Under the pieces are notes generated by a model. It was given only the letters and a program-made list of their open reading frames with translations, ran no database searches and was not told the DNA's origin. DNA of 64,000 nucleotides. Origin: Vicinamibacterales bacterium (GTDB lineage Bacteria; Acidobacteriota; Vicinamibacteria; Vicinamibacterales; 2-12-FULL-66-21). Both the position numbers and the translations under genes were made by a program. Location of the stretch: positions 6,670-70,669 of the forward strand of contig DATHTE010000003.1 of NCBI GenBank assembly GCA_035463475.1, in the 5' to 3' direction. This document shows, in pieces, positions 24,316 through 33,648 of the stretch (position 1 is its first letter; the number at the start of each line of letters is the position of its first letter).

Positions 24316-26406
24316 TTACCGCCGCGCGGCCTTCGCGAGTGCAATCCCCAGTTCCTCGGCGAGCGCGTCCACGTCGTACACCCGCTCGAGCGCGGTCTCG
24401 ATGTACGCGGGATGCACGGCGACGGTGCGGTTCTTCTCGGCGTCGAACCAATAGCTTCCCGAGATCGAGTGGATGTTGCCGTCGAAGACCAGCCCGACGA
24501 TCTCCCCCTTGGCGTTCACCATCGGGCTCCCGGAATTCCCTCCGACGATGTCATTGGTCGTGACGAAGTTGACGCGGGAGTCCATGTCGAGCCGCGGTCT
24601 TGCGGCCGTCCAGCGTTTCGGCAGCGCGAAGGGGGGCGCCCCGGTAGCCCGCTCGAACAGCCGGCTCAGGCGCGTGAACGGCTCGACGCGCCCGTTGCCC
24701 TCGGTCCAGCCCTCCACCGCGCCGTACGAGAGCCGCAACGTGAAGGTCGCATCCGGATAGAGGCTCGTGCCGTACACCTTGAACCGCGCGGCGGCGATCG
24801 CCTGCTGCGCGCGCTGCTCCGGCGCCTGCACCTCGTTCTCGTAGATCTTCCGCAGCTCGCGCGCCTCGTCGTCGATTGCGCGGGCCAGCGCGATCATCGG
24901 GTCCTTGCTCGCCGCGACCGTCTTCTGCCCTCCTTCGAGCAGCGCCACGCGCACTTTCGGGTCCCCGAGTGTCGATCCGACGACGAGCGCGCGCGCCCGC
25001 TCGTCAGGCGAGGCGGTCCCGAGCGCTTCTTTGATCACCGGGTGATCGGGCCCGAGATACTCGCGCATCCGTTCCAGCGAAAACGAGAGGCGCACCTGTT
25101 CCAGATCCGGATACACGGGAGAGTGCGCGCCGAGCGTCTGGCGCAACGTGACCAGCTGCGCGTCGGTGTACTCACGGAGCCGGTCCGCGTTCGCCTTCGC
25201 GCGCTCGTCGGCCGCGCGGACCAGGTGTCGCGCGTAGACGAACAGGTCGCTGTTGAATCCCGCGCCCCCTTCGATCCACGTGTACGGGACCAGGATGTTG
25301 CGATACGTCGCTTCGGCCCGGGCGATGTCCTCCCACGCGCCGCCCGCCTGCGCTTTCAGCTCCGCGCTCGCCATCACGGCCTCGCGCAGCTTTCGCTCCT
25401 CCTCCGCGCGCTGCTCCATCATGCGATCATCGAGCAGCGAGACGAGCTGCATCCGCCGCACCTTGTGGCTGTTCTCGATGGTGTCGAGGTAGTCCTTCGC
25501 GGTGCGTGCCGCCTCGCGTGAGGACTTCGAGTACTGCGCCAGCCGTCCGCGCAGCTCCGAGAACCGCAGCAGCCAGAACGGCAGGACGATGTCGCGCTGC
25601 GTCTTGAGCTGCGCAACCGTCAACAGCCGCTGCGTCGTCCCAGGGTGCCCGGCGACGAAGACCGGCTCCCCTTCCTTCGCGCCGGACCAGTTGAACGTGA
25701 GATGCGCGGGCGGTCGTGCCGGCTTGCCGTTTTCGTAGACGCGCAGCAGCGACATGTCAAGGCACCAGCGCGGGAACTGGAAATTGTCCGGATCGCCGCC
25801 GAACGCGGCGACCGCGCTCTCCGGGGCGAACGCGAGCCGCACGTCGTCGTACCGCTTGTACTTGTAGAGCCAGTGCTGGCCCCCTTGGTACAGCGTGACC
25901 GCTTCGCACGCGCGCGGCTCTCCCGCCTGCTTCGAGTCGGCCTCGCAGCGCTCTTCGAGCTTGGTGAGGACCTGATTGCGGGTGCGCGCCGCCTCGGCGG
26001 GCGCGACGCCCTCGAGCGCCCGCGTGACGTCCGCGGTGACGTCCTCGGTGTCGATCAGCACCGAGGCGCGCTCACCCTGGCAGCGGACTTCGTCCTTGCG
26101 CGTCGCGGCTGTGAACCCGCTCGCCACCAGGTCGCGGGCGGCTGTCGAGTTCTCGGCGAGGCACGTCTGCGCGCAGTGATGGTTCGTGAGCACCAGCCCG
26201 TCGGGGGAGACGAAGGAGGCGGTGCAGCCGCTCTCCAGCCGGATGACCGCGTTCTGCAGCCGCTCGAGCCACTGATCGCCGGTTTGCACGCCATACTTCT
26301 TCGCGACCTCGCCCCGCGGGAAGTTGTCGAACGTCCACATCCCCTCGTCGGCCGCCACGCCGGCGCAGAGCGCCGCCACGAACATCGCCACGACAAGTCG
26401 CTTCAT
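24316..26406 (-). CDS. S46 family dipeptidyl peptidase (DPP7/DAP BII type)
   Basis: DEGMWTF, LTNHHCA, DIVGGNSGSP, GLVFDGN (Gly at the S1 position as in DPP7, not the Arg of DPP11). Confidence 0.93.
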   Translation of the reverse strand: MKRLVVAMFVAALCAGVAADEGMWTFDNFPRGEVAKKYGVQTGDQWLERLQNAVIRLESGCTASFVSPDGLVLTNHHCAQTCLAENSTAARDLVASGFTAATRKDEVRCQGERASVLIDTEDVTADVTRALEGVAPAEAARTRNQVLTKLEERCEADSKQAGEPRACEAVTLYQGGQHWLYKYKRYDDVRLAFAPESAVAAFGGDPDNFQFPRWCLDMSLLRVYENGKPARPPAHLTFNWSGAKEGEPVFVAGHPGTTQRLLTVAQLKTQRDIVLPFWLLRFSELRGRLAQYSKSSREAARTAKDYLDTIENSHKVRRMQLVSLLDDRMMEQRAEEERKLREAVMASAELKAQAGGAWEDIARAEATYRNILVPYTWIEGGAGFNSDLFVYARHLVRAADERAKANADRLREYTDAQLVTLRQTLGAHSPVYPDLEQVRLSFSLERMREYLGPDHPVIKEALGTASPDERARALVVGSTLGDPKVRVALLEGGQKTVAASKDPMIALARAIDDEARELRKIYENEVQAPEQRAQQAIAAARFKVYGTSLYPDATFTLRLSYGAVEGWTEGNGRVEPFTRLSRLFERATGAPPFALPKRWTAARPRLDMDSRVNFVTTNDIVGGNSGSPMVNAKGEIVGLVFDGNIHSISGSYWFDAEKNRTVAVHPAYIETALERVYDVDALAEELGIALAKAARR

Positions 26407-26425
26407 ACGGGCAGGATATCAACGT

Positions 26426-26526
26426 GGGGTCAGGTCTGGAAAACCCTGTTTAAGAGACACGAGCGACACGGCGCCCCCGGGCCTGTCGCTCGTGTCCGCT
26501 AAACAGGGTTTTCCAGACCTGACCCC
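26426..26526. repeat. 101-bp REPIN-like long inverted repeat
   Basis: Perfect 27-bp outer arms GGGGTCAGGTCTGGAAAACCCTGTTTA plus perfect 13-bp inner arms GACACGAGCGACA; fills most of a divergent gap. Confidence 0.9.
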
Positions 26527-26547
26527 GTTTCGGTATCCTCTCCCACC

Positions 26548-27930
26548 ATGCCGCGCAGAGCTCTCGCCTCGCTCGTCCTGTCTGTCTGTGCCATTCCGCT
26601 GACTACCGCCCTCGGACAAGACCCTCCCGCGCCAGCGCCCGGCGGCCGCGTGAGGGCGCTCGTGGGCGGGACCCTTATCGACGGCTTCGGCAGCGTACCC
26701 ATCCGCAACAGCGTGATCTTGATCGAAGGGGACCGCATCACGGCGGTCGGCCAGGTCGGGTCGCTCGCCGTGCCGCAGGCCGGCAAGGCCGCCGCGGAGG
26801 TCATCTCCACGGAAGGCATGACCGTGCTGCCTGGCCTGTGGGACATGCACGTCCACACGATGATCGCCGGGCACGCTGACTACGCGCACTGGGACAAGAC
26901 GTATCCCGCGCAGTTCGAGTCCGTGATCATGCCCGCCTCCGCCAGGCAGCTCCTGATGGCCGGTGTCACGAGCGCGCGCGATCTCGGCGCGCCGCTCGAA
27001 CCGAGCATTAGCGTCCGCGACCGAATCAACGCCGGCAAAATCCCCGGACCGACACTCTACGTCTCCGGGCCGTTCATCCAGCACGAACCCTATCCCGGCA
27101 CGGAGGCGTTCCGCTGGGGCGTCACGGGGGCAGACGACGCGCGCGCGAAGGTGGACAGGCTTGCGAAAGCCGGCGCGGACGTCATCAAGCTGATCGACCA
27201 GGATCAAATGACGCTCGACGAAGTGCGTGCCGTCGTCGAGCAGGCCCACCGGCACCGGCTGCCCGTCGTCGCGCACTCGCACCGGCCGGAGGAGATCCGC
27301 CGGGGCCTGGCCGTCGGCGTGGACTGCTTCGAGCACACGGGGCTGTCGAGCGCGCCGGAGTATCCGCCGGAGATCATCGCCGCCGTTCGCGAGCGCACGG
27401 CACAAATGAGCCTCGGCCCGCTCTGGTGGACACCGACCGTCGAGGGGCTGCTCAATTACGAGTACCTGCGCGACAACCCGGAGTTCATCGACGATCCGGC
27501 GTGGCACGAAGGGCTGCCCACGAACATCGTGCAGGACATCCGCAAGTCGCTCGAGCACACCGATAGGCTGCCCTATTACCAGCTCACGCCGGCGCGGAGG
27601 CCGACGCTCAGGCGCAAGTTCCAGCAGCTGCGCGAAGCGGGCGTGGTACAGCTCATTGGCACCGACAGCGGAATCCCGATGCAGTTCCACACGCAATCCA
27701 CCTGGCGCGAGCTGCACGCCTGGGTGAACGAGATGGGCGTCGCACCGATCGAGGCAATTCGCGCGGCCACGTACTGGCCGGCCGTCGCGATGAAGAAGGA
27801 TACGGAGGTGGGCACGGTGACGCCCGGGAAGTACGCGGACATCATCGCGGTGCGCGGCGACGCGCTGCGGGACATCGCGCTGCTGCAGCGCGTGGACGTC
27901 GTCGTCAAACACGGAGTGAGGTACCGATAG
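26548..27930 (+). CDS. Secreted metal-dependent amidohydrolase (Xaa-Pro dipeptidase/prolidase-like)
   Basis: GLWDMHVH, VIKL, AHSH, FEH and GTDSG ligands; signal peptide. Confidence 0.88.
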   Translation: MPRRALASLVLSVCAIPLTTALGQDPPAPAPGGRVRALVGGTLIDGFGSVPIRNSVILIEGDRITAVGQVGSLAVPQAGKAAAEVISTEGMTVLPGLWDMHVHTMIAGHADYAHWDKTYPAQFESVIMPASARQLLMAGVTSARDLGAPLEPSISVRDRINAGKIPGPTLYVSGPFIQHEPYPGTEAFRWGVTGADDARAKVDRLAKAGADVIKLIDQDQMTLDEVRAVVEQAHRHRLPVVAHSHRPEEIRRGLAVGVDCFEHTGLSSAPEYPPEIIAAVRERTAQMSLGPLWWTPTVEGLLNYEYLRDNPEFIDDPAWHEGLPTNIVQDIRKSLEHTDRLPYYQLTPARRPTLRRKFQQLREAGVVQLIGTDSGIPMQFHTQSTWRELHAWVNEMGVAPIEAIRAATYWPAVAMKKDTEVGTVTPGKYADIIAVRGDALRDIALLQRVDVVVKHGVRYR

Positions 27931-33603: not shown

Positions 33604-33629
33604 GGGGTCAGGTCTGGAACAGACCTGAC
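33604..33629. repeat. Short copy of the 26426 element (GGGGTCAGGTCT-GGAAC-AGACCTGAC)
   Basis: First 16 nt identical to 26426-26441; 9-bp perfect stem; lies between TBDR1 and the amidohydrolase. Confidence 0.8.
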
Positions 33630-33648
33630 TCACCCTCAAGGAGGACTC

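Follow-up and report, generated by a model that had tools for sequence, protein, structure and literature searches.

We propose that the 141-bp gap between two divergent genes in a Vicinamibacterales genome probably holds an orphan REPIN-type element that was passively inserted between two pre-existing leaderless core promoters of a '-10 only' type. The gap lies in a window of 64,000 nt (the whole stretch of DNA analyzed), and the genome, referred to here as G000, is a 99.7%-complete draft of 5.61 Mb in 144 contigs with 68% GC, from a soil acidobacterium whose closest peptidase orthologues assign it to Vicinamibacterales, Acidobacteriota; all genomes compared are drafts or MAGs. A preliminary description of the window had interpreted the palindrome in this gap as a symmetric bidirectional promoter, in which a REP-like element had been exapted to supply -35 boxes to both genes. 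The evidence points instead to an ordinary event, in which a selfish hairpin repeat was tolerated in the upstream half of two promoters whose function does not depend on a -35 box.

A palindrome of the REP type between two divergent genes

The gap separates a gene encoding an S46 family peptidase from one encoding an amidohydrolase. Both products have a predicted signal peptide (MKRLVVAMFVAALCAGVAA/DEGMW for the peptidase; MPRRALASLVLSVCAIPLTTALG... for the amidohydrolase), and both ATGs, at 26406-26404 on the minus strand and at 26548 on the plus strand, respectively, are the earliest starts possible in their ORFs. We read both upstream regions and found no purine-rich Shine-Dalgarno (SD) sequence before either ATG; in G000, the sequence preceding the amidohydrolase ATG is TATCCTctcccaccATG. 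The coordinates given in the preliminary description were all correct, including the palindrome, the TATCCT hexamers 7 nt outside it, the ATGs a further 6 and 8 nt away, and the TTTCCA motifs at 18 nt. The locus is arranged as follows:

24316 to 26406, minus strand: S46 family peptidase gene, 696 aa (PF10459 Peptidase_S46, E=1.8e-205)
26407 to 26412: acgggc, the 6-nt spacer from the peptidase ATG to TATCCT
26413 to 26418, minus strand (AGGATA on plus): TATCCT, predicted -10 box of the peptidase, at -12..-7 from the ATG, with TGa upstream (extended -10-like)
26419 to 26425: tcaacgt, the 7-nt spacer from the peptidase -10 box to the palindrome
26426 to 26526, no strand: 101-bp REPIN-like palindrome, two inverted REP units with termini GGGGTCAGGTCT / AGACCTGACCCC
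26437 to 26442, minus strand (TGGAAA on plus): TTTCCA in the left arm, 18 nt upstream of the peptidase -10 box, matching TTGACA at 4/6 positions
26510 to 26515, plus strand: TTTCCA in the right arm, 18 nt upstream of the amidohydrolase -10 box
26527 to 26533: gtttcgg, the 7-nt spacer from the palindrome to the amidohydrolase -10 box
26534 to 26539, plus strand: TATCCT, predicted -10 box of the amidohydrolase, at -14..-9 from the ATG, with GG upstream
26540 to 26547: ctcccacc, the 8-nt spacer from TATCCT to the amidohydrolase ATG
26548 to 27930, plus strand: amidohydrolase gene, 460 aa (PF01979 Amidohydro_1, E=2.7e-27)

The palindrome is far beyond chance. Its arms (26426-26468 and 26484-26526) are 43 nt each, are complementary at 40/43 positions (three mismatches) and enclose a 15-nt centre, and the repeat search extended the inverted repeat to 26413-26539, with 56-nt arms at 86%. 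As single-stranded DNA, the 141-nt gap folds at -59.3 kcal/mol (z = -12.4). A search of Rfam over the locus returned sub-threshold chance matches only. We considered whether the TATCCT hexamers form part of the element and rejected this, as the 7-nt spacers are not complementary (2/7) and the hexamers are missing from the other copies. A promoter inside the element was also rejected, since the palindrome contains no TANNNT and the sigma-70 scan gave no match there.

The palindrome belongs to a repeat family with the ends GGGGTCAGGTCT...AGACCTGACCCC. At one mismatch or fewer, G000 carries 58 termini of this family, which resolve into 16 paired copies plus single units. About ten copies are of the long form (89-110 bp, 75-83% identical to the palindrome at 26426-26526), while the short-form copies are hairpins of 29-35 bp. 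Most copies lie between ORFs, in convergent, tandem and divergent gaps, and some lie within ORFs. No target-site duplication was present at any family copy in G000, and the unit, which begins (T)GGGGTCAGGTCT, lacks a GTAG or CGTC tag at both ends. Several copies (C8:85118, C108:11712, C15:24955 and others) fall within long high-GC3 ORFs of our crude gene set and may represent intragenic REP insertions or mis-called ORFs. Within the window itself, a short-form copy (GGGGTCAGGTCTGGAACAGACCTGAC) occupies 33604-33632, starting 4 nt past a stop codon. The following gene has its GGAGG SD about 15 nt beyond this copy, and the gap looks co-transcribed.

Among 60 relatives, the GGGGTCAGGTCT motif is patchy, with 46 matches in G006, 12 in G007, 7 in G048 and 0 copies in the same-genus genome G001. 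In G006, G048 and G007, the motif borders PF01797 (Y1_Tnp, RAYT) genes in inverted orientation. At the G006 locus (L116, G006:C274), five plus copies at 139-258 and four minus copies at 1428-1561 surround the RAYT gene, in flanking arrays of tandem GGGGTCAGGTCTG... units with a 27-nt period; the same arrangement is seen in G048 (L123) and G007 (L117). The RAYT proteins of L116 and L123 share 51% identity. Many further tandem GGGGTCAGGTCTG... arrays occur elsewhere in G006. REP families are defined by a motif of this kind flanking its RAYT gene in inverted orientation, and the 101-bp form, as an inverted doublet, is built like a REPIN. Thus, the initial assignment of the palindrome as REP-like is supported by the three related genomes.

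G000 also contains two PF01797 genes, at C25:43560-43904 (L024) and C43:13936-14271 (L023). Each is bordered by a repeat family of its own, AAATGGGGTCAGACCCCATTT (up to 56 BLAST matches, or about 50 copies) for the first and GGCCTGTCACCAATTGTCC (up to 19 matches in G000) for the second, and their products are only 35-39% identical to the G006 RAYT protein. Because both RAYT-like genes carry other repeat families, and no RAYT gene flanked by GGGGTCAGGTCT was found in G000, the GGGGTCAGGTCT copies count as orphans within the limits of a 99.7%-complete draft. The AAATGGGGTCAGACCCCATTT and GGGGTCAGGTCT families have the 8-mer GGGGTCAG in common, and cross-mobilization is conceivable.

Predicted leaderless -10 boxes in the genome and in orthologues

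To place the two TATCCT boxes in a genomic context, we used a crude set of 2969 ORFs of at least 150 codons, chosen by high GC3 and with the first start codon taken. In this set, the first base of TANNNT is enriched at -15..-12 from the start codon, with an abrupt drop at -11. TAYNNT likewise peaks at -15..-12 and drops sharply at -11, and the TANNNT peak survives the exclusion of hexamers that begin with an in-frame stop codon. A leaderless-type box is present in 246/2969 ORFs (8.3%) versus 1.5% at control offsets. The commonest boxes among these 246 are TAGAAT, TATAAT and TAGACT or, when hexamers with an in-frame TAA/TAG are left out, TATAAT, TACAAT and TATCAT, with a preference for G in the 1-2 nt before the box. 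Across the genome, TATCCT itself shows a 6.4x enrichment at -12..-15, and both TATCCT boxes of the locus, at -12 and -14, fall inside the enriched window. An SD-like motif precedes about 27% of the 2969 ORFs. This leaderless signature agrees with the 9.7-19.4% of leaderless genes predicted in Acidobacteria by Zheng et al. 2011 (PMC3160421).

Divergent gene pairs with leaderless-type boxes on both sides number 15 out of 270, where about 6 would be expected if the two sides were independent. Twelve of the 15 have gaps of 17-67 bp, including one 43-bp gap with boxes 14 nt apart. In compact pairs such as C35:9212-9240, C87:76720-76748 and C72:89667-89711, TANNNT-N6-9-start is found on both strands, and there is no space for a -35 box outside the neighbouring gene.

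Next, we analyzed the orthologues of both genes at loci lacking the element, a comparison that the preliminary description had itself proposed. Among the amidohydrolase orthologues, a box (TATACT, TATGCT, TATAGT or TACAAT) lies 6-7 nt before the ATG in the same-genus genome G001 (81% identity; TATACTctcccgATG), L125 (87%; TATGCT-N6-ATG, TATGCTtcgccgATG), L127 (83%; TATACT-N7-ATG, TATACTccccgccATG), G018 (75%; TATAGT-N6-ATG) and G006 (TACAAT-N6-ATG). The orthologues in G013 and G008 (79% and 76% identity) are SD-led (AGGAGG). For the peptidase, the orthologue L036 (cTGcTATCCTgtcctcATG) carries TATCCT, the identical hexamer at the identical distance, with no element upstream; L038 has TACTGT-N6-ATG and G013 has TATGCT-N6-ATG, while those of G001, L035 and L037 have SD-like leaders. 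The DNA upstream of the orthologue boxes is unrelated between genomes, and therefore the core promoter would work in many upstream contexts. Since orthologues without the element keep them, both -10 boxes predate it.

Consequently, the proposal that both genes are leaderless, with TATCCT as their -10 box, is supported as a prediction by the genome-wide signature and by conservation in orthologues. The retention of TANNNT boxes at loci without the palindrome argues, at the same time, against a promoter built by the repeat.

Several other features of these loci deserve mention. Orthologues alternate between SD-led and leaderless forms, and the G001 peptidase orthologue (L021, G001:C22, 1445-1497) has a TATCCT 41 nt upstream of the ATG as well as a GGAGG SD. 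In the closest amidohydrolase relatives (L125 2980-3003 and L126 1332-1355), the gene follows a co-directional 402-aa gene at a distance of 20 nt; in L125, the TATGCT-N6-ATG in this position suggests an internal leaderless promoter in an operon-like pair. Upstream of the amidohydrolase orthologue of L127, at 2920-2975, the unit (A/C)TCGAACC(C), 8-9 nt long, is repeated in a row. A possible remnant of the element in G001 (CCTGAACCCC before the amidohydrolase and GATATC..AACGT..GGGG before the peptidase) was judged to be chance, the motif being absent from that genome.

The role of the arms, competing explanations and the origin of the symmetry

The exaptation model would have the arms provide TTTCCA as a -35 box, at an 18-nt spacer, to each flanking -10 box. 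Its geometry is exact, and any -35 contact made by either promoter would by position fall inside the arms. Furthermore, most family copies give GTTCCA or GTTTCA, so TTTCCA at this locus has one more match to TTGACA, and the Neisseria Correia elements, with promoters at either or both ends (PMC2649163), provide a precedent. However, a hexamer agreeing with TTGACA at 4/6 positions or more, at a spacing of 16-18 nt, was found for 8.9% of the 246 leaderless-type promoters, compared with 10.6% and 8.1% in windows shifted by 25 or 35 nt, so the TTTCCA match is at chance level here. The region upstream of these 246 promoters gave no -35 signal, with a flat weight matrix and no positional peak of TTG, and a generic sigma-70 scan of the locus returned 0 matches. 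The AAAACC/GGTTTT variant that yields TTTCCA is also present in the copy at C58:76827-76849, and therefore it is not an adaptation of this locus. The two TTTCCA boxes count, moreover, as one coincidence, because the arms mirror each other.

The preliminary description had also proposed a genome-wide search for -10 enrichment 7 nt outside other copies of the element. Among the 58 family termini, TANNNT occurs 7 nt outside only at the two termini of this locus and at none of the other 56, and the density of TANNNT within 25 nt of family termini equals the background. Taken together with the -10 boxes kept by orthologues that lack the palindrome, these results do not bear out functional -35 boxes in the arms, their exaptation, or the palindrome as a symmetric bidirectional promoter. 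We thus regard the exapted promoter as unlikely. The arms may still influence promoter strength to a modest degree.

The element could alternatively act as a topology-sensitive or protein-binding DNA module, for example through a cruciform or through binding of gyrase or an IHF-like protein, that couples or insulates the two promoters. Some E. coli REP/BIME elements bind gyrase or IHF-like proteins. The hairpin is very stable, as its folding energy and z-score indicate, and since only 7 nt lie between each arm and the adjacent -10 box, extrusion would bring the boxes together; the 101 bp would also separate promoters that might otherwise compete for RNA polymerase. Against such a module, copies sit in all kinds of gaps and even within ORFs, and the family is absent from the same-genus relative G001. 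We consider a dedicated module of this kind improbable. A further explanation is that the genes are not leaderless at all. Transcription would then start farther upstream, in or across the element, translation would proceed without an SD, the hairpin would lie in the 5' UTR and affect mRNA stability or translation, and the pair of TATCCT hexamers would be coincidental. With an SD-like motif in only about 27% of ORFs, SD-less translation of leadered mRNAs is probably common in G000. Other copies (e.g., C133:71022) lie 9-35 nt from a start codon with no -10 box between, and therefore elements of this family can lie in leaders. Nevertheless, orthologues of both genes keep TANNNT 6-8 nt before the ATG although their DNA farther upstream is unrelated, both spacings lie exactly within the enriched window of the genome, the element contains no TANNNT, and the promoter scan found no match. 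There is, in our judgement, little chance that hairpin-bearing leaders account for this locus.

We favour the passive insertion of an orphan REPIN between two older promoters. According to this model, RNA polymerase would recognise each TATCCT box, with TGa upstream for the peptidase and GG for the amidohydrolase; the predicted start sites coincide with each ATG or lie no more than 2 nt from it, and the mRNAs would be translated leaderless. The REPIN would then lie upstream of both start sites and probably in neither mRNA. By geometry, it would cover the -35 and spacer positions of both promoters, which appear to have no -35 requirement, and it is best viewed as a selfish insertion, tolerated where the DNA holds little promoter information. 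From this combination of evidence, we infer the actual start sites, insertion as the origin and the neutrality of the element. Secondary effects are conceivable: the element might keep two competing promoters at a distance, extrude as a cruciform when divergent transcription generates negative supercoiling, or bind a protein.

The symmetry of the locus would follow if the element sits at the middle of what is otherwise a 40-bp back-to-back leaderless promoter. Removing the element leaves CAT-acgggc-AGGATA-tcaacgt/gtttcgg-TATCCT-ctcccacc-ATG, in which the gap measures 40 bp and 14 nt separate the -10 boxes. On this reconstruction, the element-free gap would be a compact back-to-back leaderless promoter, an architecture native to G000, where it occurs about a dozen times. 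Any divergent pair of TANNNT boxes is by nature an inverted repeat at 3/6 positions, and the chance of identity between two leaderless-type hexamers of G000 is 0.042. We estimate the central position in the 14-nt gap at about 1 in 15, and as likelier should selection disfavour positions that touch the extended -10. Identical hexamers at equal distances thus amount to a coincidence of about 0.3% (0.042 x ~1/15), which gives a targeted or selected arrangement some plausibility. We consider the symmetry of the hexamers a moderate coincidence and not design.

The junction could also have arisen by a rearrangement that joined two genes instead of by simple insertion. The peptidase and amidohydrolase genes are not adjacent in any relative examined, so that none of them shows the unsplit 40-bp promoter; neither gene keeps its neighbours, and even the closest amidohydrolase relative reaches no more than 87% identity. 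When metagenome contigs were scanned for exact matches to both flanks, no empty-site allele came up. Both origins are thus compatible with the relatives examined, and the collections searched hold no same-species allele.

A broader possibility is a preference of REP/REPIN-type palindromes, in insertion or in retention, for the centre of compact back-to-back leaderless promoters, where they would uncouple competing promoters, making this a recurrent and functional form of promoter remodelling. Such a preference might arise if divergent transcription keeps the DNA underwound or single-stranded, the substrate of a Y1 transposase. We consider this highly unlikely.

Comparison with known systems

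The two promoters resemble the leaderless TANNNT genes described by others (PMC3160421), including those of Mycobacterium (PMC3898074) and Deinococcus (PMC4007540, PMC12340547), in having TANNNT 6-8 nt before the ATG and no SD. The weak or absent -35, the high GC and a signature that is genome-wide in G000 extend the likeness. They differ in that, in the lineage of G000, such promoters are predictions from sequence, and in that two promoters face apart with a repeat wedged between them. Our results support, on computational grounds, the use of leaderless '-10 only' promoters by Vicinamibacterales, in which they often form very compact back-to-back pairs.

The element largely qualifies as a REP/REPIN, the class mobilized by RAYTs (Y1, IS200-like) in Pseudomonas and Enterobacteria (PMC3733652; Bertels and co-workers, PMC8049555). 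It shares with that class a short palindromic unit in tens of mostly intergenic copies, the occurrence of singlets and inverted doublets, with the doublet forming one hairpin of about 100 nt, the lack of target-site duplication, a patchy distribution in relatives, and the inverted flanking of a Y1_Tnp gene by the same motif in G006, G007 and G048. The described REP super-families carry a GTAG or CGTC tag (Di Nocera et al. 2013, PMC3733652). The G000 family differs in having no such tag, in its Acidobacteriota host (Vicinamibacterales), in having no cognate RAYT in the genome, in numbering only about 58 termini and in its longer unit of about 35-43 nt. The GGGGTCAGGTCT REP family and its RAYT are thereby described in Acidobacteriota, a phylum in which such elements are little characterized.

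The closest parallel for a promoter-bearing palindrome is provided by the Correia elements (CREE) of Neisseria, which can generate promoters at either or both ends (PMC2649163). Like the element described here, CREE are palindromic, non-autonomous elements of 100-150 bp that adjoin genes. If the exapted-promoter model were true, the locus would add to that of Neisseria a second and independent example of a mobile palindrome turned by domestication into a two-way promoter. In CREE, however, the element or its junction contributes the promoter parts, which are found again from copy to copy, whereas in the G000 family the -10 boxes are older than the element and the other copies lack them; the G000 element further differs in showing no indication of a -35 function and no TA duplication.
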